Source: Phycisphaerae bacterium (GTDB lineage Bacteria > Planctomycetota > Phycisphaerae > SM23-33). Taken from it: 63,590 bases of DNA. The position numbers and the translations under genes were made by a program. The stretch covers positions 1 to 63,590 of the forward strand of contig PUND01000065.1 in the NCBI GenBank assembly GCA_003551645.1, read 5' to 3'. This document shows, piece after piece, positions 3,193 to 29,571 of the stretch. The notes beneath the pieces are model-generated. The model saw only the letters and a list, made by a program, of their open reading frames with translations. It searched no databases and was not told the DNA's origin. Positions within the stretch are counted from its first letter, which is position 1. Every line of letters begins with the position of its first letter.

Positions 3193-3963
3193 TCATGCGC
3201 TTCCCCCGGCCGGCGTTTCATCCACGAAGACCCGCACCAGCAGCACGCCAAGCTCGTACAGCAGCCACATCGGCAGCGCCAGCGCCACCTGGTCCAGCGG
3301 CGAAGGCGACGTCGCCACCGCCCCCAGCAGGAACATGCAGACTATCACGTGCCGGCGGTATTTCGACAACTGCCCGCGGGTAACCACGCCCATCCTCGCC
3401 AGCAACAGCACCACTATCGGCGTCTGAAAAGCCAGGCCGAACACCAGCATCAGCCCGAGCATCATCGAGACGTGATTGTCGAAGGTGATATCCGCACGAA
3501 GGTTCAGCCAGCCGCTGAAGCCGATGAAGAACCTCAGCACCGGAACCGCCACGCCCAGCAGAAAGAACGCCGCCCCGGCCAGAAACAGCCCGGCCGAGAC
3601 CGCCACCGCCGGCAACACCATCCGCCTCTCGCGACGATGCAGCCCGGCCGCCATGAACATCCAGAGCTGGTAAAACACCCACGGGGACGACAGCACCAGT
3701 CCGGCCACAAGTGCGACTTTCAAGTATATGAGAAACCCCTCCGCGGCGTGCAGGACGATAAGCTCCGGCTCCCGGCCCGTCTCGGCCATCGCGCGGATGT
3801 AGGGGTGTTTCAGCGCATCGACCAAGTGGTTCCCGGCCGCCATGGCTATCGCGACCCCCACGGCCAGTCCCAAAAGCGCGCGGATAATCCGCCGACGAAG
3901 CTCCTCCAGATGCTCGCCGACGGTCATTCTGGCTTCATGCGCGGTTGACGGTTCATCGTCCAT
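3193..3963 (-). CDS. tatC: Twin-arginine translocase TatC
   Basis: MTVGEHLEELRRRII, YQLWMFMAAGL, FGLAFQTP, ATSPSPLDQ, LYELG and six hydrophobic segments. Confidence 0.95.
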   Translation of the reverse strand: MDDEPSTAHEARMTVGEHLEELRRRIIRALLGLAVGVAIAMAAGNHLVDALKHPYIRAMAETGREPELIVLHAAEGFLIYLKVALVAGLVLSSPWVFYQLWMFMAAGLHRRERRMVLPAVAVSAGLFLAGAAFFLLGVAVPVLRFFIGFSGWLNLRADITFDNHVSMMLGLMLVFGLAFQTPIVVLLLARMGVVTRGQLSKYRRHVIVCMFLLGAVATSPSPLDQVALALPMWLLYELGVLLVRVFVDETPAGGSA

Positions 3964-4126
3964 ATCGAAGCGACCTCGGACGCCGGCCACGCGGCGGCGG
4001 GGCATTGTAGCAGCCGGAGGAGGTCATTTGCGAAGGGTCTCGGCCGTCACTGAGTCCGCCAGGCCGAAGCGCGGTTCCGGCACCGCCGCCGCGGGCCTCG
4101 CGGGGCCAAGCACCATGGCCGCCCGG

Positions 4127-5692
4127 TCAGCTTGCCTCGTCGCGCATCGCCAGCGCGCCGGTCGGGCACGCGGCCGCGCATTGGCGGGCGGCCGTCTTGA
4201 GGCCCTTCGAAAGCGGCTCGCCGAACGGCACCTGCACGCGGACATCGAAACCCCGCCCGACGAACGTCAGCCCCAGCGGCTCCTTATGCTCGGCCGCGAC
4301 CCGCACGCATACGCCGCACTTGATGCACTTGGTCGGCTCATAGACCACCCCCGCGCCGTCGATGCGAGTATAGGTCCGCCGGTCGCCGTGGAAGCGCCTC
4401 GGCGAGGCCTCGTACTCGGCCGAGTGGAGCCGAAGCTTGCAGGAGCTTTTCTTGCGGCAGTCACACCGCAGGCAGCGGCGCGCCTCGGAGCGGGCCAGCG
4501 AATCGCGAAGCTCTCCCGGCTGGGCAGCCCCGGGAATGCGGGCGACCCTGTTGGCGTGGTTCAGGAAGGTCTCCATCTCCTGCTCGCCGAGCCGCCCCAT
4601 GTGACAGCTCCACTGCCGCCGGGGAGCGTCCGTATTGTCTCCGGCGAGCATAAGGCCGATGGATGCGGCGGCGGCCTTTCCGTCGGCCACCGAACGGACG
4701 GTCATCCGCCGGGCGCGGACCACGTCGCCGCCGGCGAAGACCCTCGCCCGAGACGTAAGCAGACTGTCGCGCGCAACCGAGACCTTGCCGTCGCGCACGT
4801 CCAGCCCGAACGGCCGGGACCCCTCCGACAGCCGACCGACGCCGACGAACACCGCGTCGAAACTCCCAAGCAGCTCCTCCAGCGAGACGGCCTTGCCGAC
4901 CTCCACGCCGAAGCGGAACTCCACCTCCATGTCTCGCACACAGTCCGCCTCGGCGTGCAGTATCCGCCTGGGCAGACGGTCTTCGCCGAGGGCGTAGCGG
5001 AGCATCCCGCCGGGCTGGTCGCGTCTTTCAAAAATGGTGCATGCGTGACCGGCCCGCCGGAGATGCCAGGCGGCCGACAGTCCCGCCGGACCCGCCCCGA
5101 CCACGGCCACGCTCCTGCCGGTATCGGCCGCGGGCTTGGGCGTATAGGGCCTGTGGCCGCCGGTGAGGTCGGCCTCGGCTGCGTAGCCCTTCAGTTGCAT
5201 GATTGATACGGCCTCGTCGGCCGCCGCCCGACGACAGGCCTTCTCGCAAGGCGCCGAGCATATCCGACCCAGCACCGCCGGCAGGGGGATGTCGGTTTTT
5301 ATTACCTCTATTGCCTCGCGGAGCTTGCCCTGGCCGATGTATCGCAGCATTTGGGGTATGTCCAGCCCGGCCGGACACGCGACGGTGCACGGTGCGTCGC
5401 AGTCGCCCAGGTGATCGCTTAGCAGAAGCTCCAGGGCGTTCCCGCGGGCCTCCAGGACCTCCGGGGTGTTGGTGAACACACGCATCCGGTCTTCACAGAC
5501 GGTCCCGCAAGAGGGCATTAGACCTTCCTGTCCGACGACCTTCACCAGACAGACCATGCAGCTCGTCCGGGCCGGCTTGCCCGGCAGGTGACAGAGCGTG
5601 GGTATGTTCACGCCCAACCCGCGGGCCACCTCAAGGACGGTCTGGCCCGGCTTGAACTCCACCTGGTGATTGTCGATTTGAATACTGGGCAT
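4127..5692 (-). CDS. Fe-S/FAD oxidoreductase: NuoG/HydA-like N-terminal 2Fe-2S domain with an inserted GltD/NfnB-like FAD domain (StnC/NsoC-like, shortened)
   Basis: IPTLCH..SCMVC..PSC (2Fe-2S), DCDAPCTVACP, GRICSAPCEKAC, VVGAGPAGLSAA (FAD binding), VFAGGD, CLRCDC..C, CIKCGVC and CPTGAL. Confidence 0.85.
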   Translation of the reverse strand: MPSIQIDNHQVEFKPGQTVLEVARGLGVNIPTLCHLPGKPARTSCMVCLVKVVGQEGLMPSCGTVCEDRMRVFTNTPEVLEARGNALELLLSDHLGDCDAPCTVACPAGLDIPQMLRYIGQGKLREAIEVIKTDIPLPAVLGRICSAPCEKACRRAAADEAVSIMQLKGYAAEADLTGGHRPYTPKPAADTGRSVAVVGAGPAGLSAAWHLRRAGHACTIFERRDQPGGMLRYALGEDRLPRRILHAEADCVRDMEVEFRFGVEVGKAVSLEELLGSFDAVFVGVGRLSEGSRPFGLDVRDGKVSVARDSLLTSRARVFAGGDVVRARRMTVRSVADGKAAAASIGLMLAGDNTDAPRRQWSCHMGRLGEQEMETFLNHANRVARIPGAAQPGELRDSLARSEARRCLRCDCRKKSSCKLRLHSAEYEASPRRFHGDRRTYTRIDGAGVVYEPTKCIKCGVCVRVAAEHKEPLGLTFVGRGFDVRVQVPFGEPLSKGLKTAARQCAAACPTGALAMRDEAS

Positions 5693-5693
5693 G

Positions 5694-8012
5694 TTATTCA
5701 ACTTCCACGGCGTCGGCGGGGCATACATCGCGGCAGGCGCCGCAGCGGATGCATTCTTCCGTGTCGATTTCGTGTTTCTCGTGCGGCCGGGCGACAATCG
5801 CGTCGGCCGGGCAGTCCTGCGCGCATCGTGTGCAGCCGATACAGTTGTCGTTTATGCCGTATGTTATAAGGGCGGTGCACTGCTTCGCCGGGCATCGGCC
5901 CCGGATGTGCGCCTCGTACTCATCTCGAAAATGCTCCAGCGTGGATAGCACCGGGTTGGGGGCGGTCTTGCCAAGTCCGCAGAGACTGTTGTCCCGTATT
6001 GAATGCCCCAGCCGTTCCAGCTCCCGCAGGTCGCCGTCGGCGCCCTCGCCGCCGCAGAGCCGCTCCAACATGCGCAGCATCAGGCGGGTCCCGACGCGAC
6101 AGAAGGTGCATTTGCCGCACGACTGGTCCTGGGTGAACTCCAGGAAGTACCGCGCTATTTCCACCATGCAGTCGTCCTCGTCGAGCACGACCAGCCCGCC
6201 CGAACCCATCATCGCGCCGACGTGGACCAGTGCCTCATAGTCCACCGGCGTATCGGCCAGCGATTCCGGAACGCAGCCGCCGGAAGGCCCGCCGACCTGC
6301 ACGGCCTTGAAGCGCTTACCTTCGCCTATGCCGCCGCCGACCTCGTGAACCACCCTGCGCAGCGTGATACCCATCGGCACTTCGATAAGCGCGTTGCGGT
6401 TCACCTTTCCGGCCAGAGCGAACACCTTGGTGCCCTTGCTGTGCTCGGTGCCAAGTTTGGCGAATTCGTCGGCCCCGTTGCGGAGGATCCACGGCACAAG
6501 CGCGAAGGTCTCCACGTTGTTGACCAGCGTCGGCCTGCCCCACAGCCCGCTCCGCGACGGATACGGCGGCCGAAGCCGGGGGTTGCCGCGACGGCCCATG
6601 ATCGACTCCAGCAGGGCGGTCTCCTCTCCGCAGACGAATGCGCCGGCGCCCTCCATGACCCGCATCTTCAGATCGCCCAGCAGCCCCTCCTGCTCGCAGT
6701 GGGATATCGCTTCGCGCACGCGCGGTATCGCCAGCGGATACTCCTGGCGGATGTACAGAATCGCCTCGCCCGCGCCGATGGTTTGAGCGGCGGCGGCTAT
6801 GCCCTCGATGACGCTGTAGGGATAGCTCTCAAGGATCATCCGGTCCATGAACGCCCCGGGGTCGCCCTCGTCGCCGTTGCACACGACGTATTTGACGTCG
6901 GAGTCCGCCTCGGCGACCTCCCGCCATTTCTCGGCGGTCGGGAACCCGGCGCCGCCCCGGCCGCGAAGCCCGCTGCGTTCGATTTCGCCCAGCACCTGCT
7001 CGGCCGACATATCCTCGCGGCACTTACGAAGCGCCTCGAAGCCGCCCGTTTCCAGGTACTCCCGCAGGTCCAGCGGGTCGCTGCGTCCGGCTCGTTCGGT
7101 GACCAGCAGCACCTGCGGGTCCCAGAAGCTCGAAGCCCGCTGCGTGCTCATATCCAGCCCGTATCGCGTCACCGGCTCCCAGGCGTCGTCGGTCAGCAGA
7201 TGCTCAAGCGCCGTGGAGGCCGTGCGCCGCGCCTTCGCCAGCACGCCGCCGGGATGCAGGTGTCTGCCGAGAATCGCCCTCACATCGTCCGGGCGGACCT
7301 GTGCGTAAAGGTGCGAGCCGTCGTCCGGCGTAACTATCTCCACCAGCGGCGTCTCGTGGCACATGTTCACGCAGCTTACCGGCTTGACCTTCGCGTCGAT
7401 GCCAAGGTCCGCCAGCGCCTTGTCGATGGCCTGCTTGACGTCCCGTGTGCCGCGGGCGACGCAGCAGGAGTCCAGCGTGATTCGGATTTCCGCCTCCCGA
7501 GGCGTGCCCGGCCGGCGCCGGCGCTGCTTGGCGCGGCGTTTCTGAAGCTCAAGGAAGTCATCCAGCGAGCGGGTGATACTCTCGGTGGTAAGGTGTCCGA
7601 AGGTCACGTCGTCTATCTGCATCACCGGCGCCAGCGAGCAGCAGCCCAGGCAGGCGACTCGCTCGACGGTGAAGACCCCTTCGCTGTCGGTATCCTCGTC
7701 GCCCTCGATGCCGAGGTGTTTGCAAAGCGCGTCGGTTACCAGCGGAGCGCCTTTGACGTGGCAGGCGGTGCCGTGGCAGACGCGGACGGTATGCCGCCCG
7801 GCGGGACGGAGCCGAAACTGCGTGTAGAATGTGCTTACGCTTTCGACCGCGGCGGGCGTGATGTCGGCAATCTCGCAGAGCCGGCGCAGCGCCTGCTCGG
7901 GCAGATACCTGTACCTGGCCTGGATCGCCTGAAGCAGCGGTATCAGAGCGTCCTCGCTACGCCCGAGCCGCTCGACCACTTCGTCAACATGTGTCAGGTC
8001 AGGTTCCGCCAC
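5694..8012 (-). CDS. Fused NuoE + thioredoxin-like 2Fe-2S + NuoF + 2x[4Fe-4S] flavoprotein (HydBC/BfuBC-type NADH module)
   Basis: VCHGTACH..CLGCCSLAP (NuoE), SCC..CVNMC (second 2Fe-2S), SGLRGRGGAGFPT, CNGDEGDPGAFMDR, FVCGEET, SCGKCTFCRVG..LCGLG, HIRGRCPAKQC and two C-terminal CxxCxxCxxxCP motifs. GTG start at 8012 follows a purine-rich RBS. Confidence 0.92.
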   Translation of the reverse strand: MAEPDLTHVDEVVERLGRSEDALIPLLQAIQARYRYLPEQALRRLCEIADITPAAVESVSTFYTQFRLRPAGRHTVRVCHGTACHVKGAPLVTDALCKHLGIEGDEDTDSEGVFTVERVACLGCCSLAPVMQIDDVTFGHLTTESITRSLDDFLELQKRRAKQRRRRPGTPREAEIRITLDSCCVARGTRDVKQAIDKALADLGIDAKVKPVSCVNMCHETPLVEIVTPDDGSHLYAQVRPDDVRAILGRHLHPGGVLAKARRTASTALEHLLTDDAWEPVTRYGLDMSTQRASSFWDPQVLLVTERAGRSDPLDLREYLETGGFEALRKCREDMSAEQVLGEIERSGLRGRGGAGFPTAEKWREVAEADSDVKYVVCNGDEGDPGAFMDRMILESYPYSVIEGIAAAAQTIGAGEAILYIRQEYPLAIPRVREAISHCEQEGLLGDLKMRVMEGAGAFVCGEETALLESIMGRRGNPRLRPPYPSRSGLWGRPTLVNNVETFALVPWILRNGADEFAKLGTEHSKGTKVFALAGKVNRNALIEVPMGITLRRVVHEVGGGIGEGKRFKAVQVGGPSGGCVPESLADTPVDYEALVHVGAMMGSGGLVVLDEDDCMVEIARYFLEFTQDQSCGKCTFCRVGTRLMLRMLERLCGGEGADGDLRELERLGHSIRDNSLCGLGKTAPNPVLSTLEHFRDEYEAHIRGRCPAKQCTALITYGINDNCIGCTRCAQDCPADAIVARPHEKHEIDTEECIRCGACRDVCPADAVEVE

Positions 8013-8019
8013 AGGCGAT

Positions 8020-9777
8020 TCATTCCTTTCCCACGGCCCACAGGTGTCGTCGGCCGCGGATGTAGATGCGTCCGTCCACGTACGCCGGAGAGCAGTTGGA
8101 CCGCTCGGACAGATCGGCCGTGCCGAGTTCGTCATACTCATCCGCCGTCGCCGAGAACCGGTGCATCACGCCGTCGGATGTCAGCAGATGCACCTCATCA
8201 CCCACAAGCGTCGGCGAGGAGCGGACGGTCGAGTCGAAGTCGTGCTCGTAGATCATGTCGCCCGTCTCGGCGTCGAGGCAGGTCATCAATCCATAGGTCT
8301 GCACAAGCCAGATGCGATCGTCGGTCGCCAGAGGACTTACGATGTCCGGCAGGTCGTCGTAGGCGATCCATTCGATGTGGGTATCCGTAACGTCGCCTTC
8401 GCCGCCGGTGCGGATGGCCGATAGCTGCGAGTATGCCGTTACCGCGTACACCTTGCCGTCGGCATACGTCGGGGACGGTCCCACGTCGCCTGTCAGACAG
8501 TCGGCCCGCCATATCTCGCCGCCGTCGGCCGGGTCGTAGGCGATTACCCACGGGCTGGAGGTGGTTATCAACTGCTCACCGTCGGGCGTATCCGCCACCA
8601 GCGGCGTGGACCAGGAGTTCATCACCGGGCGTTCCTTAAGATACCGCACCGAGCCGGTCTCCAGGTCCAGCCCGTACAGCTCGCTGTACATGGCTTCCGG
8701 GTCCGTGCCCTGGTCGTACTGGATGATGACCTTGTCGCCGTGAATAATCGGCGAGGAGGCATGGCCGTAGATGTTGTCCGGTGGCCCCAGGTTGCGGGCC
8801 CATGCTCGCTCACCCTCCATATCGGTGCAGATCACGTCGCCGTTGGCGAAAACCGCTACCACATACCTGCCGTCGGTGGCAGGGCTTGGCGCGGCATATC
8901 CGGTGTCGTCCATCACGCTAGGCGCATCGGGCCGGGCGCCGGGGATATTGACCGCCCGGTGGCGCCAGAGCAGCTCGCCTGTGTCGGCGTTATAGCAGTA
9001 AAGCTCGCGATTTTCGGCGTCGGCACCGGTGATAAACACCCTGTGGCCGGCGACGACAGGCGAGTTGTGCCCCGGAAGCGGTATCTGCTCGGACTTCCAG
9101 AGGATGTTCCGCCCGCTCTCGCCGTCCCAGTCGTCGGGAAAGTCCCCGTCGGGCGCGACCCCAAGCCCGCCGGGTCCGCGGAAGCGTGGCCAGTCCGCCG
9201 AGACCTCAACCGCCTCGGGGGCGGGTTCATCCTCGGTATCGACACCCGCAACCGGCTCCGGTTCTTCCGGGGCGACGCGCCTGGCAAGCGGGTCGGGCGA
9301 GACCAGCGCCAGTGCTGTGATGGCGGCCGCCAGTGCTATAGAGGCCGCCCCGATCGACCACCGGGCGGTTTTCCTCCGGGCGATCTCGCGCCTGCTCAAA
9401 TCGCCCGAGCCGCCGGGGACCTTCACCGGACGACCCGAGGCCGCGACGTGTGCGGATATCAGCAGTGCGGCCACGCCGCCGGCAAGCAGCCAGCCGCCGC
9501 GACGCATGAACGCCTGCCGCCGAAAGAACTCCCGCCGCAGCCGAAGGTCCGCTTCGCGAATCCGCTCGCGCAGCTCCCCGTCGCCGGGGGTTCTGTCCAG
9601 CTCCGCCCGGAGTTGCTGGAACCGCGGCGATTCCCAGGGGTCGGCGCCCTCGGCGCCGGACCATTCCCAGACCAGCAGACCGGCCACCATCAAACAGAAC
9701 ATGGCGCAGACCAGGACCATCGACCGGGCGGCCCGGCGACGGGTGGCGAGGCGTTTGTCGTCGGTCGGGGACATCAA
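8020..9777 (-). CDS. Membrane-anchored PQQ/BamB-like beta-propeller protein with three N-terminal TM segments
   Basis: Three hydrophobic segments, then DWPRFRGPGGLG and repeated W..SP/SSP propeller blades. Confidence 0.85.
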   Translation of the reverse strand: MMSPTDDKRLATRRRAARSMVLVCAMFCLMVAGLLVWEWSGAEGADPWESPRFQQLRAELDRTPGDGELRERIREADLRLRREFFRRQAFMRRGGWLLAGGVAALLISAHVAASGRPVKVPGGSGDLSRREIARRKTARWSIGAASIALAAAITALALVSPDPLARRVAPEEPEPVAGVDTEDEPAPEAVEVSADWPRFRGPGGLGVAPDGDFPDDWDGESGRNILWKSEQIPLPGHNSPVVAGHRVFITGADAENRELYCYNADTGELLWRHRAVNIPGARPDAPSVMDDTGYAAPSPATDGRYVVAVFANGDVICTDMEGERAWARNLGPPDNIYGHASSPIIHGDKVIIQYDQGTDPEAMYSELYGLDLETGSVRYLKERPVMNSWSTPLVADTPDGEQLITTSSPWVIAYDPADGGEIWRADCLTGDVGPSPTYADGKVYAVTAYSQLSAIRTGGEGDVTDTHIEWIAYDDLPDIVSPLATDDRIWLVQTYGLMTCLDAETGDMIYEHDFDSTVRSSPTLVGDEVHLLTSDGVMHRFSATADEYDELGTADLSERSNCSPAYVDGRIYIRGRRHLWAVGKE

Positions 9778-11138
9778 CCGTCCTCTCCGGCCGATGCGGC
9801 GGCGTCATTGCGGCGTTTCCGCTCAATAGGACAGACTTCGAAGCATCTCCCGCACGACAGGCACGTGCCTCGGTCGGGCACGTAGTCCGGCCTGCGCCTC
9901 CGGACCGACCATCGCACAAGGCGCATCCCGGCGACAAGGCCGACGAACCCGCCGACGATCATCGCTCCGTGTCTGACTCGCGACCGGACCCGGCCGGCTA
10001 TGGCGTGTATCTCATCCGCACCGAGCGGTTGTCTGTCATAGGCGGCCGCCAGGTCGTGGTCGGTTTCCTCGCCGGCGTCGGCGCGGCGCAGGTGTTCGGC
10101 CAGGCGGACGTGATGGTCCGTCCGGCTGACTGCCGGACCCGCCAGCCAGCCGGCGCACAGACCGGCCGCAATCATCACCGGCCAGAGCACCAGACACACC
10201 GAGAGTCCGAGCTTGCCGAAATGCCGGCCGGGGTCCGGCGCCGACGGCGCCTCGATCGCGTTGTACGGGCAGGAGTTCTCGCATAGGCGGCACTGCACAC
10301 ATTCGTCGGGTGTTATTGTTACGTGCCACTTGCTCAGCCGGCTCAACGGCCTTAGCAGCACGCTGTACGGGCAGATGTAGCGGCAATACGGCCTGGCGAC
10401 GAAAACGCCCACCAGCAGCATCACCCCGCCCAGAATCAGCAGGTCCACACGCCCGGCGACGGAAAAGCTCACACGGCCGGCTTCGCCCATCGCCACCTGT
10501 TCTATCCATTTGCCCACCGGAACCAGACGGAAGATACTCACGAACGGGTCGAACCGGCAGATGAGGAACACCGTTCCGCTGAAGGCCAGCAGCACCGCCG
10601 CGGCCAGATAAGCCACCGCGAACAAGCTCAGCCCCGCCTCAATCGGACGGGGGATTTTCAGCGCCTTCAGCGCCACCACGTCCTGTATCGCCCCCAGCGG
10701 ACAGACCCCGCCGCAGAATGTCCGCCCGAACAGCAGCGTCCCGAAAAGCGGCAACAGGAGGAACGCGATTATCGGAAAGCTGACCGCGTAGCCGTCGCCG
10801 CCGATGCTCAATGCCGCGTTCTGGACCGCGCCTATCGAGCAGACGCAGCCCAGCCGGTAGAAACCGAAATAAAACAACGAAAGCAGCATCACCACCGCTA
10901 TGCCCCGTCGGGAGCGCCTCTTGAACGCAAACCACGAGGCCGCCACGATGGCGCCGGCGAGCACTGCCGCATCCACGTATTCAATGTGCCGCCAGATGCC
11001 CTGGCGCGGTTCGGGAGTAGTGGTCTCCGGCAGCGGCTCGTCCAGTTCCGGCGTGGGGAAGCGCAGATCCGCCGTCGCTGCCCCCGACAGCAGCATCAGC
11101 AGTATCAGGATAATTCCGGCGTGGCGCGTCGAGGTCAT
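9774..11138 (-). CDS. Polytopic membrane 4Fe-4S protein (NapH/MauN/NosR-C-like)
   Basis: GCVCSIG, RTFCGGVCPLG, RPYCRYICPY, CVQCRLCENSCP, CLSCGRCFEVCP and multiple TM helices. Confidence 0.88.
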   Translation of the reverse strand: MTSTRHAGIILILLMLLSGAATADLRFPTPELDEPLPETTTPEPRQGIWRHIEYVDAAVLAGAIVAASWFAFKRRSRRGIAVVMLLSLFYFGFYRLGCVCSIGAVQNAALSIGGDGYAVSFPIIAFLLLPLFGTLLFGRTFCGGVCPLGAIQDVVALKALKIPRPIEAGLSLFAVAYLAAAVLLAFSGTVFLICRFDPFVSIFRLVPVGKWIEQVAMGEAGRVSFSVAGRVDLLILGGVMLLVGVFVARPYCRYICPYSVLLRPLSRLSKWHVTITPDECVQCRLCENSCPYNAIEAPSAPDPGRHFGKLGLSVCLVLWPVMIAAGLCAGWLAGPAVSRTDHHVRLAEHLRRADAGEETDHDLAAAYDRQPLGADEIHAIAGRVRSRVRHGAMIVGGFVGLVAGMRLVRWSVRRRRPDYVPDRGTCLSCGRCFEVCPIERKRRNDAAASAGEDG

Positions 11139-14497: not shown

Positions 14498-14650
14498 TGA
14501 TGTTCCGGTGCGGTCTGTCGGCTTGAACCTCGACAGGCGGCAGTGTACATTAATCTACCCACCATTTTTGTCTTTATGCTCCTGAAAACCAAGAGATTTT
14601 GCGGGCCGACCGGCCCTGAAACAGGTTCAACCCCGATAAGGGGGCCGATT

Positions 14651-19709: not shown

Positions 19710-19716
19710 AATCGCC

Positions 19717-21399: not shown

Positions 21400-22219
21400 A
21401 GGGCCTGAGCCGGTCCGGGCGTTCCTGGAATCCAGGCGACTCGCCGGCGGCGGGTTCTCCGGCCGGGACGACAAGCCGGACCTGTACTACACGTCCTTCG
21501 CAGCAGATCTGTTCCGGGCGCTGGGCGGCGACGACCCGCCGCCCGGGCTTACCGACTATCTCGATCGCGCCCTGACCGGCACAGCCGATATGGACCTGGT
21601 CCACCTGTGCTGTCTCATCAGGTCCCGGCGGTCGCTGGGGCTTGCCTGCGACGGACGGTTCGCCGACCGGCTGGCCGAGTTTCGCAGCGCGGACGGCGGG
21701 TTCGCGACCTCCCCGAACGCCAGGACCGGAAGCAGCTACGGGGCGTTCCTGGCTGTGGGGGCGTGGGAGGAACTGGACTCTCCCCCCGAAGACATCAACG
21801 CCGTCGCCGAGAGCGTCCTTGCTCTTCGCTGCCGGGGCGGAAGCTTCGCCAACGACTCCCACCTGCGGATCGGCTCGGTACCCGGCACGGCCGCGGCGGT
21901 GGTGGCTTTGAGACACATGGACCGGCCCGCGGACCCTGAAAGCGCCGATTGGCTGAGCAAACGGCAACTCGCCTCCGGCGGGTTTGAACCGGTCGCCGGA
22001 CTGGGCCGCGCCGATTTGCTTTCGACCGCAACGGCGATGGCCGCCCTCGCCGGCGAAGGGCGGCTGACCGGCGAACAGGCCGAAGCGGCCGTGCCGTTCG
22101 TACACCGGCTGTATCGCGGCGGCGGGTTCGCGGCCTCCGAAGACGACCGCGGCGCCGACTGCGAATACACCTGGTATGCGCTGCTGGCACTGGGTCTTCT
22201 GGAGGAGGACCAGGCGTGA
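21338..22219 (+). CDS. Prenyltransferase/squalene oxidase repeat protein (GGTase-beta-like alpha-alpha barrel)
   Basis: Repeated GGF motifs (AGGGF, ADGGFA, GGSFA, ASGGFE), DLYYT, DLLSTATA and DCEYTWYAL. Confidence 0.85.
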   Translation: MLTIRLQMLHWASLARNRLPEGPEPVRAFLESRRLAGGGFSGRDDKPDLYYTSFAADLFRALGGDDPPPGLTDYLDRALTGTADMDLVHLCCLIRSRRSLGLACDGRFADRLAEFRSADGGFATSPNARTGSSYGAFLAVGAWEELDSPPEDINAVAESVLALRCRGGSFANDSHLRIGSVPGTAAAVVALRHMDRPADPESADWLSKRQLASGGFEPVAGLGRADLLSTATAMAALAGEGRLTGEQAEAAVPFVHRLYRGGGFAASEDDRGADCEYTWYALLALGLLEEDQA

Positions 22220-24030
22220 CCGTACCGCACCTGAAAGAGACCCTCGATACGCTCCGCGACCGGCTGCTGGCCGAGCGGTCCGCCCGCGGATGCTGGACCG
22301 GCCGGCTCTCCACCAGCGCCCTTGCGACGGCCACGGCGGTTACCGCTCTGACCATCGCCGAGCCGGAGACCGCCGGCGAGCAAATAGAAGGCGGACTCGA
22401 CTGGCTCCGGACCAACGCCAACAGCGACGGCGGTTGGGGCGACAGCCCGGAAAGCCCGAGTAACCTCTCTACCACCGTGCTGGGCTGGTCCGCATTCGCC
22501 GCGGCCGGCAGGGCGGACGACGAGTGCGCCGCCGCTGCCGAGTCGTGGATAGACCGCGCCGTCGGCGGGCTGGATACGGACAAGCTTCTCGGCGCGATTG
22601 TCGGCTCATACGGCGGCGACCGGACCTTCTCGACGCCGATCCTGGCAATGACCGCGCTTGCCGGACGGCTCGGCCCCGGCCGGGACACCTGGCGGCACGT
22701 GCCACCTCTGCCATACGAACTCGGCGCGCTTTCGCACCGCTGGCTGCGCCGCCTGCGGCTGCCGGTGGTCAGCTATGCGTTGCCGGCGCTTATCGCGGTC
22801 GGCCGGCTGAGGCGATGCCGGCTGCGGCCGCGAAACCCGATAACACGGCTGGTCCGCCGGCTCGCCGATGGCCCGGCCCTGCGGAAGCTCGAACACATCC
22901 AGCCCGAAAGCGGCGGCTACCTGGAGGCCCCGCCGCTGACGGCGTTCGTGGTGATGTCGCTGGTCTCCTGCGGAGCGGCGGAGCACCCCGCGGTGCCGCG
23001 GGGGCTGCGGTTTCTGCACGATACGGTCCGGCCCGACGGCGGCTGGCCCATCGACACCGACCTGGCGACCTGGCTTACGTCCCTGTCGGTCCGCGCGCTT
23101 GCCGCCGACGGGTGTCCTCCGCCGCGATTCACGGCCGAAGACCGCCGTACGACACTTCAATGGCTGCTGGACTGCCAACTGCGACGCGTGCATCGCTACA
23201 CCGAGGCCCCGCCCGGCGGCTGGGCTTGGACCGACCGCTCAGGCGGGGTCCCCGACGCCGACGACACCTCCGGCGCCATGCTCGCCCTGCGACTGCTGGA
23301 CGGCGACGACCCGAGCCGCGCCCGGGCGGCCGAGTTCGCCGCCGACTGGCTCGGAGGGCTGCAGAACCGCGACGGGGGAATCCCGACGTTCTGCCGCGGG
23401 TGGGGCCGGCTTCCGTTCGACCGCAGCGCGGCCGACCTGACCGCCCACGCCGTCGCCGCATGGTCCGCCTGGCCGCCTGCCGGCGACCGGGCCGGCGAGA
23501 GGATGTCCCGCATCAAGCGGGCGGTCGCATACCTGGCGCGGGCACAACGAGCCGACGGCGCCTGGCTGCCGCTGTGGTTCGGCAACCAGCACACGCCTGA
23601 TATGACCAACCCGGTTTACGGGACCGCTCGCGTGCTGATAGGGCTTTGCGGCGCGGACGCCGCGAACAACACGCCCGACGCGCTGAGCCGTGGGGCCGGA
23701 TGGCTGCTGTCGGTCCAGCGGTCCGACGGCGGATTCGGCGGCGACTCGGACGGGCCTTGTTCCATCGAGGAGACCGCGGTAGCCGTATCGGCCCTGTCGG
23801 CCGTCGGCCTGCGTATGCCGGATGAGCCGCGGCTGCCCGATGCCGTGCGGCGCGGAGCGATGTGGCTTATCGAACACACAGACGGCGGAAACGTAACGCC
23901 CGCCACGCCCATAGGGCTTTACTTCGCCAGACTGTGGTATTCCGAGAAGCTGTACCCGCTTATTTTCTCCACTGAGGCCCTGGCACGGGCCGGGGCATTG
24001 CTGCATCGTCGCTACGAAGGCGATACGTGA
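22216..24030 (+). CDS. Class II terpene cyclase (squalene-hopene cyclase-like)
   Basis: Catalytic DxDD motif (PDADDTS) and at least six QW-type repeats (NANSDGGWG, VRPDGGW, LQNRDGG, AQRADGAW, VQRSDGGFG). Confidence 0.88.
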   Translation: MTVPHLKETLDTLRDRLLAERSARGCWTGRLSTSALATATAVTALTIAEPETAGEQIEGGLDWLRTNANSDGGWGDSPESPSNLSTTVLGWSAFAAAGRADDECAAAAESWIDRAVGGLDTDKLLGAIVGSYGGDRTFSTPILAMTALAGRLGPGRDTWRHVPPLPYELGALSHRWLRRLRLPVVSYALPALIAVGRLRRCRLRPRNPITRLVRRLADGPALRKLEHIQPESGGYLEAPPLTAFVVMSLVSCGAAEHPAVPRGLRFLHDTVRPDGGWPIDTDLATWLTSLSVRALAADGCPPPRFTAEDRRTTLQWLLDCQLRRVHRYTEAPPGGWAWTDRSGGVPDADDTSGAMLALRLLDGDDPSRARAAEFAADWLGGLQNRDGGIPTFCRGWGRLPFDRSAADLTAHAVAAWSAWPPAGDRAGERMSRIKRAVAYLARAQRADGAWLPLWFGNQHTPDMTNPVYGTARVLIGLCGADAANNTPDALSRGAGWLLSVQRSDGGFGGDSDGPCSIEETAVAVSALSAVGLRMPDEPRLPDAVRRGAMWLIEHTDGGNVTPATPIGLYFARLWYSEKLYPLIFSTEALARAGALLHRRYEGDT

Positions 24031-24377
24031 AACTGATATACTCAAACGTGAAGGGCTTTCAGCCGGCAGCGAAACGGCCGGCGGCTTTGAGACGCCTTAA
24101 TTCGCGACCCATTGACAGGGCCGAGCGGAAAAGCCGTTCAAGCAGCCACTGTCATACGCGGCTGTGCGTCGCGTGTGCGAACGTTTTGCGTTGCGATGGG
24201 CCGAGTACCGAGGCCGTCCGGAAATGCGTGGCAAGTGAGTTAATGACTTACGACAGAAGTACGGAACTGTTTGGGGCTGATGCTTCAACAGCGGCCGACC
24301 GGAGGTCCGAAGGACCGGCAGTCATCAGCCGGAGCCGTGAGGCCCCGGAGCACTAACGATTGCGGAAACAAGCCGAC

Positions 24378-25574
24378 ATGAAGCAGGCAATCATCCTGGT
24401 CCTGATAATGGGCGCCGCGTTCGCGGCGCTGCTCCTGTTGCGGATGCGCGACGACAGCGACGCTGATGCCGATCCGCCTCGGCCGCGGGAGGAACCCGCG
24501 CAAATCAACGCCCGTGGAGACTGGCCGATCTTCCGGGGCGATGCGGCGCTGCAGGCCCACAGCCCGACCGAGCTGCCCCGGCGGCTGCGGCTTATCTGGC
24601 GACAGGACACCGCAGCGCCGATCAACAGCTCGCCGGTAATCGCCGACGGTCTGGTCTTCGTCGGCAACGACGACGGAAAGCTGCTGGCCCTTCGGCTCAG
24701 CGACGGCCGGGAGCAATGGTCGTTCGCCGCGGCCGACCCGATAGTCGCGCCGCCGATGGTCGCGGACGGCTCGGTCTATGTCGGCACGCTTGCCGGGGAC
24801 CTGCTGCGGCTGGACGCCGCCGACGGCGAGAAGCTCTGGTCATACGCCACCGGCGGTGAGATTCACGGCTCGGCCAACTCCGCCGGCAGCGGCGACCAAC
24901 TGCGGATACTGGTGGGCAGCTACGACGGCAAGCTGCACTGCGTGCGCGCCTCCGACGGGCACGGGCTTTGGACGTACCAGACCGACAACTACGTTCACGG
25001 CGCCCCGGCCGTCGCCGACGGGCTGGCCGTCTTCGGCGGCTGTGACTTCAACATCCACACCGTCGGCATCGAAGACGGACAACCCGCCGGGAGCGTCCAT
25101 CTGGGGCAGGGTTCATACGTCGCCGCCTCCGTCGCCGTCGCCGACGGCAGGGCCTACGCGGGCACGCACGACAACAGCTTCGTGGCCGTTGAACTTCCAG
25201 AAGGCCCGATCCGATGGGAACAGACCGCCGGCGGCGCCTTTTTCAGCCCGCCGGCGATAGCCGACGGCATGCTGGTTATCGGCTGCCGCGACCGGAACGT
25301 TTACTGCTTCGACGCCCGGACCGGAGAGCTTGTCTGGAGCTTCCTGACAGGCGGCGATGTTGACGGCGGGGCGGTTGTCGCCGGCCGGCGCGTGGTGGTC
25401 GGCTCGGCCGGCGGCAAGCTGTACCTGCTGGACCTCGCCGACGGCCGCGAGATATGGTCCCACACGCTGGGCGGGCCGATAAAGACCACGCCGGCGGTGG
25501 TCGAGGGCGCAGTCGTGGTCGGCTGCGAGGACGGCTTCGTGTACGCCTTCGCCCCCGAGGAGCCGGAGCAATGA
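24378..25574 (+). CDS. Membrane-anchored PQQ/BamB-like beta-propeller protein
   Basis: N-terminal TM segment, DWPIFRGD and eight regular blades (SSPVIADGLVFVG..GKLLAL..W). Confidence 0.9.
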   Translation: MKQAIILVLIMGAAFAALLLLRMRDDSDADADPPRPREEPAQINARGDWPIFRGDAALQAHSPTELPRRLRLIWRQDTAAPINSSPVIADGLVFVGNDDGKLLALRLSDGREQWSFAAADPIVAPPMVADGSVYVGTLAGDLLRLDAADGEKLWSYATGGEIHGSANSAGSGDQLRILVGSYDGKLHCVRASDGHGLWTYQTDNYVHGAPAVADGLAVFGGCDFNIHTVGIEDGQPAGSVHLGQGSYVAASVAVADGRAYAGTHDNSFVAVELPEGPIRWEQTAGGAFFSPPAIADGMLVIGCRDRNVYCFDARTGELVWSFLTGGDVDGGAVVAGRRVVVGSAGGKLYLLDLADGREIWSHTLGGPIKTTPAVVEGAVVVGCEDGFVYAFAPEEPEQ

Positions 25575-26278
25575 ACAACGATGCGCAAATCGCACAGATG
25601 GAGCATGTGGCGCGGTGGTTCCAGCAGCCGGACCGGACAGAGCGGCTGGAGGTGCTGCGGGATGTGTCGCTGCAAGTCGCGGCGGGCGAGTCGCTGGCTG
25701 TCGTGGGCCCCAGCGGGTCGGGCAAAAGCACGCTGCTGAACCTTCTGGCCGGGCTGGACAGGCCCAGTTCCGGGCGGGTGACTGTGGACGGCCGGGAGGT
25801 GTCCGGCCTCGACGACGATGCCCGCAGCCGGCTGAGATGCGAGCGGATCGGCATAGTCTTCCAGCTACACCATCTCCTGCCACAGTGCAGCGTGATGGAG
25901 AACGTCCTCATCCCCACGCTGGCGCCGGGGGCGCCGGAAGCGGCGTCGGCGCCGCGGCGCGCGAGCGACCTTCTGGAGCGCGTCGGCCTGGCCGACCGGC
26001 TGGACCACCGCCCGGGGCAGCTATCCGGCGGTGAGCGCCAGCGCGTGGCGGTGGTGCGGGCGCTGATAAACCGTCCGGCGCTGCTGCTTGCGGATGAGCC
26101 GACCGGATCGCTGGATCGTGCGGCGTCGGAGTCGCTGGCGGACCTGCTGGCGGAGCTGAACCGCGAGCAGGGCGTGGCGATGGTGACGGTCACCCACTCC
26201 ATGCGGCTGGCCGAGCGCATGGGTCGAGTGCTGCAACTGGACGACGGGACGCTTCGGACCGACGGGGAGCGGGCGTGA
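25571..26278 (+). CDS. ABC transporter ATP-binding protein (LolD/MacB-type)
   Basis: GPSGSGKST, LSGGERQRVA, LLADEPTGSLD and VTH. Confidence 0.95.
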   Translation: MNNDAQIAQMEHVARWFQQPDRTERLEVLRDVSLQVAAGESLAVVGPSGSGKSTLLNLLAGLDRPSSGRVTVDGREVSGLDDDARSRLRCERIGIVFQLHHLLPQCSVMENVLIPTLAPGAPEAASAPRRASDLLERVGLADRLDHRPGQLSGGERQRVAVVRALINRPALLLADEPTGSLDRAASESLADLLAELNREQGVAMVTVTHSMRLAERMGRVLQLDDGTLRTDGERA

Positions 26279-29200
26279 ATTATTCCCGGATATGGCTTCG
26301 TTCACTGCGGTTCTACCGGCGGACGCACCTCGGCGTGCTGGCGGCGGTGGCTGTGGCCACGGCCGTGCTGGTCGGCGCGCTTGTAACCGGCGACACCGTC
26401 CGCCACAGCATGCGCCGCATGGCCGAACAACGGCTGGGCGAGGTCGAGTTCGCGGTCGTATCTCCGCATCGGCTGTTCGCCGCGGACCTGGCGGGTCGGC
26501 TGGACCCCGGCTGCTCGGCCGTGCTGGAGCTTGCCGCGGCCGCACAGAGACCCGACGGCGCGGCCCGCGCCGCCGGCGTACGGGTGCTGGGAGTCGATGA
26601 GCGGTTCCGGCGTTTGTCCGCGTCGGCCGATGAGCGGATGCGGCCGGAAGGCAACGAGGCCGTCGTCAACGCCCGCCTGGCCGAGCGGCTGGAAATCGCG
26701 CCCGGCGATGAGCTTGTGCTGCGGCTCGAGACTCCGGGTGTGCTGCCGCTTGATGCGCCGCTGGCGGGGCCGGTGGACGGGACACACCTGTCGGTCCGCA
26801 TCCGGGCGGTGGTCGAGGCCGACAATCTTGGCGATTTCGCACTGACGGCCGACCAGCAGACGCCGCTGAACGTGTTCGTCAGTCGAGAGCTGCTTGCCGA
26901 GCGGATCGGCCGCCCGGGCATGGCGAACCTGCTGCTTATGCCGCGGGGCCTGGCCGACGACGCGGCCGATGCGGATGCACTGGTTCGCCAGAACTGGCGG
27001 CCGGCGGACTCCGGGCTGGAACTGCACCGGCCCGGCGAAGATACGGTCGAGCTGCGCAGCGAGAGGGTATTTCTCGATGCGGCCGTGGTGCGGGCGGCGG
27101 CGGAGCTTGGACCCGCCGCCGGCGTGCTGACATACTTTGTGAACACCTTCGCCACCGACGATGCGGAAGCTCCATACGCCTTCGCGGCCGGAGTCGGACC
27201 GCTAGGCGGCAGGCCGGACGACTGCCCGCTGCTGGATGCGCTGGGGGAGTTGGACGACGATGAGGCGGTCGTCAACGAATGGCTCGCCGAACGCGACCTG
27301 CAGGCGACGCCGGGCGATACGCTGCGAATGAGCTATTACGTTGAGGGCGTGGGCGGGCGGCTAGTCGAGCGGACAAGGGAGTTTGGCATATCGGCCGTGG
27401 TTCCGCTTGCCGGCGCGACCGGCGATTCGACGCTGATGCCGGAGTTTCCCGGCCTGGCCGGCGTCGAGGACTGCCGCAACTGGGACCCCGGCGTGCCGAT
27501 GGACCTGTCGCGCATACGCGACCTCGACCAGAGGTACTGGGACAACCACGGCGGCACGCCCAAGGTATTCGTGAACCTGCCGGCGGCGCGGGAGATGTGG
27601 GGCAACCGCTTCGGCGAGCTGACGGCCATCCGCTGGCCGGCGGCCGACGGAAGCCCGGACGGCATTGCCGAACGCCTCGGGTATCTGATAGACCCGGCCG
27701 AGCTTGGGCTGTACTTCCAGCCGGTGCGGATGCGGGCGATTGACGCGGTCGAGCAGGGCCAGGACTTCGGGCAGTTGTTCCTGGGCTTCAGCATGTTCCT
27801 TATCGGCTCGGCGGTGCTGCTGACGGGGCTGTTGTTCGTATTCGGCGTTCAGCAGCGGAGGGAGGAGGTCGGCACGCTGCTTGCCGTCGGCTGGACCAAG
27901 GACCAGGTCCGGCGGCTGCTGCTGACAGAGGGCGCCGTTGTGGCGGTCGTCGGCGGACTTATCGGCGCCCCGGCCGGGCTTGGCTATACGGCGGCGGTCG
28001 CCTGGGCGATGGAGACGTTCTGGCCGCGTGCGGTCGCCGGCGGAAGGCTTGCGCTGCATGCCGGCTGGGTGTCGCTGGTGCTGGGAACGGTCTCGGCGGT
28101 GACGATAGCGGTACTTGCCATGTGGCTTACGCTGCTGCGGCAGATGCGCCGCGATGTGCGTGAGTTGCTGGCCGAAGCGGCCGAGCCGCCTCCACCGCCT
28201 CGGCTGCGGCGGCTGGGATATCTGCCGGCGCCTCTGTGTGCGGCGGCGGCTGGTGTGCTGCTGGCGGCCGGGCCTGGGCTTGGCCCGCAGGCGGCGGCGT
28301 GGTTCTTTGCGGCGGGCGCGTTGCTGCTGGCGGCCTTCGTGACCGGCCTGTATGCGGCTCTGGGACGGCTGTCGGGGAGGTCGCGCCGGTCGCTTGGCTG
28401 GTGGTCGCTGGCGGCCCGCAATGTCGCGCGTCGTCGCGGGCGGAGCGTGGCGGTGGCGGCGCTGCTGGGCTGTGCGAGTTTCATGGTAGTCGCCGTGGGG
28501 GCGAACCGACTCGGCGTCGGCGAGGATGTGTCTGAGCGGTCCGGTCCTGCCGGCGGGTTCGAGCTTATGGCGCGTTCGTCACTGCCGATTGCGGAAGACC
28601 TGCACACCGCCGATGGCAGGAGGGAATTCGGGCTGGACGCCGAGACGGCGGAGTCGGCCGAGGCAGTGGCCTTTCGCGTACACGACGGCGATGAGGCGAG
28701 TTGCCTGAACATAGGCAGGGCGCAGCGGCCGCGACTGCTGGGCGTCCGTCCGGAGGTGCTGGACGGCCGGGGGGCATTTCGCTTTGTGGAGCTTGCCGAG
28801 CAGGCCGATGTGGAAAGCCCGTGGGGCGTGCTGGATATGGAGCTTGCCGAGGGCGAGATCCCGGTCATCGGCGACCAGCCGACGCTGCGATGGTCCCTCA
28901 ACAAGGGACTCGGCGACACCGTCGAGTACACTGATGAGCATGGCGGGCCTTTCCGGCTGAGGATTGTCGGCGTCATCGCATCTTCGGTGCTCCAGGGCAA
29001 TCTGGTGATATCGGAGGAGCATTTCCGGCAGCGGTTCGGGTCCGTCGGCGGCTACCGGATGGCGCTTTTCGACGCCCCGGCCGGCGATACCGACCGGCTA
29101 GCTGAGATGCTCACACGCGCCGGCGAGCCGGTGGGCCTGGAGGTGACGACTACGGCTGAGCACCTCGCGGAGTTCCGCCGGGTGGAGAACACTTACCTGT

Positions 29201-29571
29201 CGATTTTTCAGATACTCGGCGGGCTTGGGCTGCTGCTGGGCACGGTGGCGGTGGGCGTGGTGACGGCCCGGAACGTGCTGGAGCGGCGGACTGAGCTTGC
29301 CCTTCTGCGGGCGGTGGGGCATCCGCCTGCGGGAGTGCGGCGACTGGTGATAGCCGAGCACTGGATGCTACTGACCGCGGGCGTGGGCGTCGGGGCGGCG
29401 GCCGGGCTGCTGGCTGTGATGCCGGCGATGGCCCAGCGGGACGGGCAATTCCCCGCTGTTTCACTGGCCCTTACGCTTCTGGCGATCCTCGCCGGTGGGC
29501 TGGTATGGACATACCTGGCCGCGTCGGCGTCGATGCGCGGCGACCTGCTGCCGGCGCTGAGGAACGAATAA
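26275..29571 (+). CDS. Large FtsX/MacB-family ABC permease (duplicated, 1098 aa)
   Basis: Two repeats of TM, large periplasmic domain and FtsX TM block (QRREEVGTLLAVG; ERRTELALLRAVG). Confidence 0.92.
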   Translation: MNYSRIWLRSLRFYRRTHLGVLAAVAVATAVLVGALVTGDTVRHSMRRMAEQRLGEVEFAVVSPHRLFAADLAGRLDPGCSAVLELAAAAQRPDGAARAAGVRVLGVDERFRRLSASADERMRPEGNEAVVNARLAERLEIAPGDELVLRLETPGVLPLDAPLAGPVDGTHLSVRIRAVVEADNLGDFALTADQQTPLNVFVSRELLAERIGRPGMANLLLMPRGLADDAADADALVRQNWRPADSGLELHRPGEDTVELRSERVFLDAAVVRAAAELGPAAGVLTYFVNTFATDDAEAPYAFAAGVGPLGGRPDDCPLLDALGELDDDEAVVNEWLAERDLQATPGDTLRMSYYVEGVGGRLVERTREFGISAVVPLAGATGDSTLMPEFPGLAGVEDCRNWDPGVPMDLSRIRDLDQRYWDNHGGTPKVFVNLPAAREMWGNRFGELTAIRWPAADGSPDGIAERLGYLIDPAELGLYFQPVRMRAIDAVEQGQDFGQLFLGFSMFLIGSAVLLTGLLFVFGVQQRREEVGTLLAVGWTKDQVRRLLLTEGAVVAVVGGLIGAPAGLGYTAAVAWAMETFWPRAVAGGRLALHAGWVSLVLGTVSAVTIAVLAMWLTLLRQMRRDVRELLAEAAEPPPPPRLRRLGYLPAPLCAAAAGVLLAAGPGLGPQAAAWFFAAGALLLAAFVTGLYAALGRLSGRSRRSLGWWSLAARNVARRRGRSVAVAALLGCASFMVVAVGANRLGVGEDVSERSGPAGGFELMARSSLPIAEDLHTADGRREFGLDAETAESAEAVAFRVHDGDEASCLNIGRAQRPRLLGVRPEVLDGRGAFRFVELAEQADVESPWGVLDMELAEGEIPVIGDQPTLRWSLNKGLGDTVEYTDEHGGPFRLRIVGVIASSVLQGNLVISEEHFRQRFGSVGGYRMALFDAPAGDTDRLAEMLTRAGEPVGLEVTTTAEHLAEFRRVENTYLSIFQILGGLGLLLGTVAVGVVTARNVLERRTELALLRAVGHPPAGVRRLVIAEHWMLLTAGVGVGAAAGLLAVMPAMAQRDGQFPAVSLALTLLAILAGGLVWTYLAASASMRGDLLPALRNE

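Follow-up and report, generated by a model that had tools for sequence, protein, structure and literature searches.

What binds terpenoid-forming enzymes, β-propellers and an iron-sulfur (Fe-S) electron-transfer chain into a single bacterial gene cluster? The question is raised by a 63,590-nucleotide stretch of DNA from a Phycisphaerae bacterium (contig PUND01000065.1; 63.6 kb, about 65–66% G+C), hereafter called the window, in which such genes fill a ~26 kb cluster at positions 3193–29571. A first-pass annotation, made from the letters alone, had described this cluster as two divergent arms that serve one lipid or cofactor system. Pfam and NCBIfam scans recovered all the domains it had listed, each where it had been placed, and the gene junctions bear out two tightly coupled gene series diverging from 14498–14650. 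A comparison set of ~170 related loci divides the genes along different lines. The cluster is a mosaic of two interleaved conserved modules of uncharacterised function: a terpenoid cassette, module T, and a system of redox proteins, propellers and an ATP-binding cassette (ABC) machine, module R. As a whole, the first interpretation is partly supported. In our judgement, the most likely relation between the modules is that the lipid made by T is handled in the periplasm by the extractor and propellers of R, a reading on which our confidence is evenly divided.

Boundaries and neighbourhood of the two modules

Module R was delineated by a scan anchored on its permease. At least 403 metagenome stretches encode relatives of this protein; 80 loci were retrieved, and ~21 were long enough for gene order to be read. 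In these ~21 loci, and in all five contexts anchored on the NapH-like gene (L086–L090), the module runs along a single strand in the order propeller P5, GT4, ABC ATPase, ~1100-residue permease, propeller P2, NHL protein, mini-protein, NapG-like, NapH-like, propeller P1, BfuBC and BfuA-like. GT4 is present in most, not all, of the loci, and the mini-protein wherever it was called. The P5, ABC ATPase and permease genes, which lie in the right arm of the window, thus belong with the redox genes of the left arm, and the two arms do not stand as functional units. A propeller tree draws the same boundary, since P1, P2 and P5 form R orthogroups and P3 and P4 belong to propellers that accompany T in Planctomycetota and Verrucomicrobiota. 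Within R the positions are fixed: P5 is the first gene, upstream of GT4 and the ABC genes, P2 directly follows the permease, and P1 always follows napH. A literature search returned no published description of module R.

Module T was followed through gene contexts combined with tblastn and clustering of 85 loci; greedy clustering of reading frames in high-GC loci produced antisense artefact clusters (c5, c10, c13–c15 and c19), which were disregarded. The cassette has the order small Cys-rich protein, 2x[4Fe-4S] ferredoxin, radical S-adenosylmethionine (SAM) enzyme, DUF116-polyprenyl synthase, toroid protein and SHC-like cyclase (SHC, squalene-hopene cyclase), and this core is repeated in Verrucomicrobiota, Planctomycetota, Acidobacteriota and Armatimonadota. 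Ahead of it there can be, in order, genes for a cysteine desulfurase, a GcvH-like protein and a CobW-like GTPase; these helpers, found with T in other phyla, are absent from the window.

In the window, T sits together with P3 and P4 inside R, between P2 and P5. After start codons had been adjusted to homologue lengths, the gene junctions measured −62 to +7 nt, the exceptions being P2 to the NHL gene (132 nt), P3 to P4 (34 nt) and the GltD-like BfuA gene to tatC (121 nt). Overlaps of 4 nt join P1 to the napH-like gene, P4 to the T ferredoxin gene and the ABC ATPase to its permease. At the distal joint, the cyclase gene runs into the doubtful reading frame orf109 (24027–24356, plus strand) with a junction of −4 nt, P5 follows 3 nt later, and P5 in turn overlaps the ATPase gene by 4–7 nt. 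Judged from these junctions, both joints link T to R genes by translational coupling, and T would therefore be expressed together with them. The divergent region itself (14498–14650) is a 153-nt gap with an AT-rich core and presumably a bidirectional promoter; it contains no match to the sigma-70 consensus, which is uninformative for this phylum. We rejected orf109 as a gene and regard it as probable spacer, as it has no family match and no tblastn match in any locus and is replaced by a gap of only 38 nt in the closest relative.

The adjacency of T and R is repeated in seven other independent loci; lineages other than this one repeatedly place terpenoid genes beside BamB-like propellers and beside the redox/ABC genes, which lends support to the first interpretation. 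The window's nearest relative, a Phycisphaerae metagenome-assembled genome (MAG; L171/L173) of ~68% identity, has the identical divergent layout, lacking orf109, GT4 and a tatC gene after the GltD-like gene. Two Planctomycetaceae MAGs (L069 and L009) are also divergent, and in four further loci (L055, L114, L148 and L162) the modules form a co-directional supercluster, T>P5>GT4>ABC>permease>P2 and onward. In the last of these, an SHC-like cyclase gene (4553–6298) lies directly upstream of P5, and the preceding 4.5 kb showed neither a DUF116-synthase gene nor a toroid gene. T-adjacent loci are scattered over several deep branches of the permease tree, and accounting for the trait takes at least three state changes. 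Moreover, T cassettes of three phyla carry related propellers even where R is missing; a BamB-like propeller lies near 9 of 39 T-cassette loci, and the sister of P4 is a T-adjacent propeller of a Verrucomicrobiota locus (L046).

Several observations weigh against a functional link. T lies within 10 kb upstream in only two of the 21 R loci with at least 8.5 kb of upstream sequence, so that 19 of the 21 scorable loci lack it; R markers, conversely, were found near only 3 of ~45 T loci with useful flanks. In three R loci (L087, L088 and L172) unrelated genes lie on both sides. Since these phyla are very rich in BamB-like propellers, chance alone should produce some of this proximity. The window also lacks the GT4 gene that most R loci carry, and no site for binding a cofactor or a lipid could be recognised in the propellers or the NHL protein. 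The sequence was found in two DNA metagenome runs, from a salt lake and a soda lake, and in no RNA run. Across the loci compared, T-R adjacency is a facultative, minority state.

These counts fit a rival account, in which T and R would be independent neighbours in the envelope, with the T lipid used in the manner of a hopanoid and R acting in oxidoreduction and export of an unrelated glycan, glycolipid or small molecule; their proximity would then come from shuffled operons or from joint regulation of genes for the envelope, and not from a common substrate. In its favour, T is missing near most R loci and R near most T loci; R loci without T make up a large clade in the permease phylogeny; the GT4 that R usually contains is generic; and the redox partners in the periplasm differ in some R loci, which instead have a Tat-signal FAD protein plus another NapH-like gene (Tat, twin-arginine translocation). 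Independence fits less well with the position of T inside R, with 4-nt overlaps at both joints, with an adjacency that occurs in two architectures and at least three events on the permease tree, and with the same-superfamily propellers that partner T in three phyla. We therefore treat it as a possible but doubtful account. Functional coupling, in which the T lipid is handled by R, is plausible from the gene arrangement, and we place it at or just short of an even chance.

A terpenoid cassette around an SHC-like cyclase

The last gene of module T (22216–24030, plus strand) encodes a 604-residue class II terpenoid cyclase with SQHop_cyclase_N and SQHop_cyclase_C domains. The catalytic DxDD motif is kept as D347-A-D-D350, and the surrounding VPDADDT is invariant in 14 orthologous loci. 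Orthologues occur in Planctomycetota, Verrucomicrobiota and Acidobacteriota. Two published surveys describe a clade to which the protein might belong. Santana-Molina et al. (2020; PMC7306690) reported SHC-like cyclases with conserved catalytic residues, a genomic context suggesting a precursor other than squalene, and an undetermined function; McShea et al. (2025; PMC12414744) likewise list the clade as function-unknown. The window cyclase shares with it a length of ~600 residues (550–700 in the clade), the DxDD motif, an occurrence in Acidobacteriota and the Planctomycetes-Verrucomicrobia-Chlamydiae (PVC) group (and, for the clade, also in the Fibrobacteres-Chlorobi-Bacteroidetes group), and a polyprenyl synthase gene in place of squalene genes. 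It thus appears to fit the clade by length, motif, taxa and context, as opposed to placement on the published tree. The main text of the two papers mentions neither the ferredoxin, radical SAM, DUF116-synthase and toroid partners nor any association with propellers, with a NapGH-like chain or with an ABC exporter.

The cyclase domains and the DxDD motif also raise the question of whether the cassette is an ordinary hopanoid cluster. Hopanoid loci likewise combine a class II cyclase bearing DxDD and QW-like repeats with a radical SAM gene in the operon. The window enzyme, however, scores 131.5 bits against the hopene cyclase model TIGR01507, well under the cut-off of 431.1, and 94 bits against the Alicyclobacillus acidocaldarius SHC chains. 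No squalene genes (Sqs or HpnCDE) and no hpn tailoring genes were found in the window, its radical SAM enzyme is neither HpnH nor HpnJ, no match to the HpnH model exceeds the cut-off, and its prenyl synthase carries a fused, Cys-rich DUF116 domain. The literature, too, sets the SHC-like clade outside SHC. An ordinary hopanoid pathway is hardly credible on these grounds, and the first-pass annotation was right to set the cluster apart from one.

The prenyl substrate would come from the gene two places upstream of the cyclase (19717–21399, plus strand), a DUF116-trans-polyprenyl diphosphate synthase fusion recognised by the Pfam models DUF116 and polyprenyl_synt. Its first and second aspartate-rich motifs (FARM, with the sequence DDIED, and SARM) are invariant. 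The fusion has more than 6000 homologues at ~50% identity and is encoded in at least 588 species in a scan of one genome per species, its carriers including Chthoniobacter flavus Ellin428, many Verrucomicrobiota, Planctomycetota and Acidobacteriota, and an Armatimonadota MAG. Makarova et al. (2015) had noted the fusion and predicted an electron-transfer role. Often the gene stands alone, as on a 5.7-Mb contig (L001) and in Verrucomicrobiota (L011, L015 and L021), with no toroid, cyclase or radical SAM gene nearby; the stand-alone form may also have a housekeeping role in prenyl-chain synthesis.

Between synthase and cyclase lies the gene for a single α/α-toroid protein of 293 residues, PT293 (21338–22219, plus strand). 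Its AlphaFold2 (AF2) model, with a predicted local distance difference test (pLDDT) score of 96, matches the β subunits of RabGGTase and GGTase3 and also single-domain class II cyclases, drimenyl-PP synthase and MstE. Among 31 orthologues there is no invariant Cys or His, no Zn triad and no DxDD. We considered and rejected a protein prenyltransferase β subunit: despite the RabGGTase β-like fold, the Zn ligands are unconserved and no gene for an α subunit is present.

The two remaining proteins of the cassette are predicted redox partners. The first gene (17303–18163, plus strand) encodes a 286-residue fusion of a small Cys-rich domain, residues 1–112, with a 2x[4Fe-4S] ferredoxin whose eight Cys are invariant across 34 loci. 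The halves are separate neighbouring genes in Acidobacteriota and Verrucomicrobiota (for example L002, 1792–2807), where the small protein measures ~115–145 residues and has no family match. The second (18126–19709, plus strand; Pfam Radical_SAM) encodes a 527-residue radical SAM enzyme of type A, the ~530-residue form, with a B12-like N-terminal region and an invariant CX3CX2C. It reaches only 64 bits against TIGR04013, well under the cut-off, and comparison with the Protein Data Bank (PDB) found no close solved relative. In other lineages the same slot is taken by an unrelated radical SAM protein of ~400–430 residues that resembles SPASM, NirJ and HpnH proteins (L004, 8632–9822; L027, 8620–9915). 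The presence of two families at one position looks like non-orthologous replacement.

Given these genes, T probably makes an unknown ring-bearing isoprenoid lipid. By analogy with its family, the DUF116-polyprenyl synthase would form a regular head-to-tail prenyl diphosphate, which the toroid protein and the DxDD class II cyclase would cyclise and the ferredoxin and radical SAM pair would tailor. The product should be a non-hopanoid cyclic polyprenoid. A literature search found no paper that names the product of the cassette.

A putative electron supply, propellers and the ABC machine

The cytoplasmic part of module R is a flavoprotein pair related to the Bfu family (HydABC, NfnABC and StnABC; PDB 9bov, 9n5u, 8oh5 and 7q4v). 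The larger gene (5694–8012, minus strand) encodes BfuC and BfuB in one chain, a NuoE domain at residues 53–195 followed by NuoF and 2x[4Fe-4S] (Pfam 2Fe-2S_thioredx, Complex1_51K, NADH_4Fe-4S and Fer4). Its best PDB matches are 9bov_B, 9n5u_B (NfnB), 8oh5_B and HydB, with E values of 1e-201 to 1e-161 and coverage of residues 218–815; since homologues measure 771–786 residues, a GTG start at 8012 is favoured. The neighbouring gene (4127–5692, minus strand; Fer2_4, Fer4_20 and NAD_binding_8) encodes a truncated BfuA/StnA-like subunit that combines a 2Fe-2S domain, GltD-type 2x[4Fe-4S], an FAD domain and HydA-like ferredoxin domains, and that matches 9bov_A, 8oh5_C and 9n5u_A (NfnA) best. Aligned to 9bov_A, it skips ~130 residues (292–420) and ends at position 671 of 1178, so that it is without the NAD(P)H Rossmann domain as well as the catalytic half at the C terminus. 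The pair thus shares with the Bfu family the FMN/NADH site of BfuB with its C-terminal 2x[4Fe-4S], the NuoE-like BfuC, and the N-terminal 2Fe-2S, GltD-type FAD and HydA-like Fe-S domains of BfuA. It differs in the fusion of B and C, in the loss from the BfuA-like protein of the NAD(P)H domain and the catalytic or molybdopterin-like half, and in its genetic company, which consists of Fe-S proteins of the membrane and periplasm where the Bfu family has a soluble catalytic subunit. A Bfu-type NADH flavoprotein as the cytoplasmic partner suggests NADH rather than quinol as the electron donor.

Three Fe-S proteins would carry the electrons outward. A NapH-like polytopic polyferredoxin (9774–11138, minus strand; Fer4_5; ~7 hydrophobic segments) has two CX3CP motifs, a central 4-Cys motif and an extra C-terminal 4-Cys motif, with all these Cys invariant across 24 orthologues; it has more than 3400 homologues. 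The NapG-like ferredoxin (11141–11710, minus strand; Fer4 domains) carries the twin-arginine signal LTRRELL, and 27 orthologues keep without exception R12, R13 and 16 Cys, a number sufficient to bind four [4Fe-4S] clusters. An 85-residue mini-protein (11703–11960, minus strand) has the same LTRRELL signal and a Cx5Cx2Cx5C motif; orthologues lie between the NHL and napG genes in many R loci, and the RR pair and four Cys are conserved in 10 sequences. As in NapGH, NosGH and MauMN, a Tat-exported 16-Cys ferredoxin is paired with a polytopic protein bearing two CX3CP and [4Fe-4S] motifs. The resemblance is incomplete: the NapH-like protein scores 50.7 bits against TIGR02163 (cut-off 213) and 39 bits against NF007013 (cut-off 234), R adds the C-terminal 4-Cys motif and the Tat mini-protein, and it is accompanied by no NapA/B/C, NosZ or MauA/B partner. 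Molybdopterin or cytochrome c genes, as for a NapAB(C) partner, were found neither in the window nor in any R locus examined.

The propellers are distributed over both arms. Five are of the PQQ_2 type (PQQ, pyrroloquinoline quinone), the number originally reported, and the NHL protein brings the total to six. P1 (8020–9777, minus strand) has three N-terminal transmembrane (TM) helices ahead of its PQQ_2/BamB-like propeller, according to Pfam and a TM scan; P2 (13097–14497, minus strand) is signal-anchored and likewise PQQ_2/BamB-like by Pfam; and P5 (24360–25574, plus strand), also signal-anchored, is the most BamB-like of the five (Beta-prop_ACSF4 212 bits, PQQ_2 173 bits). On the T side, P3 (14651–15889, plus strand) has a signal peptide and P4 (15924–17306, plus strand) a lipoprotein-type signal and an insert that matches coiled coils; both are recognised by Pfam PQQ_2. 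In its AF2 model (pLDDT 85.7), the membrane-anchored NHL protein (11960–12964, minus strand) is an ordinary NHL propeller with six blades, carried on a TM helix, and a fold search against PDB structures returned only generic NHL domains (such as TRIM2 and Brat) and no functional lead. A GFxGCCNP motif is invariant in this protein, the vicinal Cys pair being present in 30–32 orthologues, and, used as a marker, it matched 864 representatives of 50%-identity clusters at E<=1e-30.

The propeller fold family is that of BamB and the PQQ dehydrogenases, exported or membrane-anchored and eight-bladed, and the window contains no PQQ-synthesis genes. These two facts speak for the first-pass proposal that T makes a lipophilic redox cofactor which is exported, bound by the propellers in place of PQQ and fed by the NapGH-like pair. 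The vicinal Cys-Cys pair of the NHL protein could be read the same way, such a pair being known in PQQ methanol dehydrogenases as well. Compared to the respective models, however, the window propellers reach only 53–176 bits for BamB (TIGR03300, cut-off 285) and 27–72 bits for PQQ-dependent dehydrogenases (TIGR03075, cut-off 480), and they differ from both groups in forming five paralogous orthogroups at fixed module positions. A cyclised polyprenoid that lacks a quinone or aromatic head is, moreover, not redox-active, and because most R loci have no T in their vicinity, R cannot in general depend on a cofactor derived from T. Taken together, these points make the cofactor proposal very improbable. 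Its negative gene inventory stands: among the window's major open reading frames, family scans found no hydrogenase, formate dehydrogenase, Rnf, complex I membrane core or PQQ-synthesis gene.

The layout of R, with a propeller, a NapGH-like pair and an ABC system, is also analogous to clade II nos clusters, in which a propeller enzyme is encoded with NosG/H and an ABC system. R might accordingly be a Nos-like periplasmic reductase in which one or more propellers hold a metal or sulfur cluster put together in the periplasm, the NapGH-like pair delivers the electrons, the ABC machine serves maturation as NosDFY does, and T is irrelevant or structural; Tat-exported Fe-S proteins and the invariant vicinal Cys pair of the NHL protein would suit such an enzyme. 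The propeller alignments speak against it. Almost no His, Cys or Met is invariant among orthologues, the residues that are being C194, C228 and H233 in P5, two Cys in P2/3 and one Cys in P1, and no conserved His set is found in P1, P2/3 or P5, compared to the seven His for CuZ, plus a CuA domain, in NosZ. Family scans of the window detected no NosZ, NosL or NosD domain, the predicted electron input is a Bfu-type NADH module instead of quinol, and the ABC system is of the MacB/FtsX type and not NosDFY. We give the Nos-like account a slim chance.

The ABC system comprises a LolD/MacB-type ATPase (25571–26278, plus strand; ABC_tran), which scores 253 bits against the LolD model TIGR02211 (cut-off 308), and a 1098-residue double-FtsX permease (26275–29571, plus strand) with two FtsX-like 4-TM units, ~10 TM segments in all, two large periplasmic domains and a C-terminal match to ADOP; MacB_PCD was detected in homologues only, together with FtsX. 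It appears to share with MacB/LolCDE-type (type VII) systems the ATPase type and the FtsX-type units with large periplasmic domains. In R, however, two such units are fused in one chain of ~1100 residues, no MacA-type adaptor or LolA/B is encoded in the cluster, and the partners are propellers and usually GT4. The window and its closest relative (L173, 14338–16229) lack GT4, and P5 abuts the ATPase gene in both. Other R loci vary at this end of the module. Between P5 and GT4, L120, L121, L128 and L132 additionally encode an FAD-dependent oxidoreductase with a Tat signal and another polyferredoxin of the NapH-like kind; upstream of P5, many R loci contain a gene resembling Hsp70/DnaK along with two unknown genes.

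R thus resembles a NapGH/NosGH-type electron supply, a Bfu-type NADH module and a MacB-type exporter, and by its sequence features appears to be a member of none of them. It is set apart because the NapH-like protein scores under the cut-offs, no terminal reductase is encoded, the BfuA catalytic module is missing and NosZ features are lacking. As a working mechanism, NADH would be oxidised at the NuoF-type FMN site of the Bfu-type flavoprotein, formed by BfuBC and the BfuA remnant, and electrons would travel through its Fe-S clusters to the NapH-like membrane polyferredoxin, which would pass them to the Tat-exported NapG-like protein and the 4-Cys mini-protein; these in turn should serve the membrane-tethered NHL and BamB-like propellers. 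The MacB-type machine would draw an amphiphile out of the inner membrane's outer leaflet, with GT4 acting alongside in most other lineages.

Surroundings of the cluster and a possible trans-envelope pathway

Outside the two modules, the flanking genes are unrelated. The first-pass annotation had counted tatC (3193–4005, minus strand; TatC Pfam 199 bits, TIGR00945 above cut-off) among the cluster genes. We rejected it as a system member for want of conservation with the other genes: neither the 68%-identity relative L171 nor any R locus has a tatC gene following the one for the BfuA-like protein. Beyond tatC, positions 1–2363 are taken up by RND efflux genes, one for a permease that the window edge truncates and one for its periplasmic adaptor, and no tie of these genes to the cluster was seen in related loci. 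On the other side lies a polygalacturonase gene (29734–31281), and the remaining genes of the window are housekeeping genes.

Three features further along the window were recorded in passing. DnaA is encoded at 39870–41264 and the cumulative GC skew has its minimum near 18–24 kb; given the DnaA gene, a chromosomal replication origin may therefore lie close to the cluster. A low-GC islet (58% compared to ~65%) at 54000–58000 contains a gene for an N6/N4 DNA methylase (56301–57182, minus strand), flanked by two reading frames without family match (55161–56297 and 57404–58150), and may be a mobile restriction-modification-like insert. A reading frame of 1117 residues on the minus strand (51443–54796) matched no Pfam family at E<=1e-5.

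Returning to the reading we favour, in which the T lipid is handled by the periplasmic parts of R, module T would have been inserted into R between P2 and P5 in this Phycisphaerae-like lineage, and the Fe-S chain would supply reducing power on the periplasmic side for the T lipid or a derivative of it. A bolder version, to which we give only a small chance, is that T and R together form an unrecognised trans-envelope lipid pathway of PVC-type diderms, in which a cyclised regular (non-squalene) polyprenoid is extracted, bound by propellers and reductively tailored or inserted. The oxygen-independent cassette would make the lipid, which in most lineages would be glycosylated and then passed from the MacB-type machine to the membrane-tethered propellers, while electrons from NADH would cross the membrane through a haem-free chain of Fe-S proteins only, from the Bfu-like flavoprotein through the NapH-like protein to the NapG-like protein and the mini-protein.

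The combination had been proposed not to correspond to any characterised pathway, and a search of the literature indeed yielded only the function-unknown SHC-like clade and nothing on the redox/propeller module. For that clade, whose product and role are stated to be open (McShea et al., 2025; Santana-Molina et al., 2020), the locus offers a defined and presumably co-transcribed gene set, 17303–24030, with which to ask what the product is. The envelope partners, namely the propellers, the MacB-type extractor and the Fe-S chain, may explain why the cyclase expressed alone showed no function. Recognising two separable modules in place of two arms changes which genes belong together in experiments. 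Module R is large, no description of it was found in the searchable literature, and it would represent a new haem-free and possibly quinone-free delivery of electrons from NADH to the periplasm. If the trans-envelope pathway proved true, such lipids could be a source of orphan cyclic polyprenoid biomarkers. What the locus brings together is a cassette for a terpenoid lipid and a putative supply of electrons to the periplasm; should the coupling of T and R be real, the two combined would amount to a system of a new kind.

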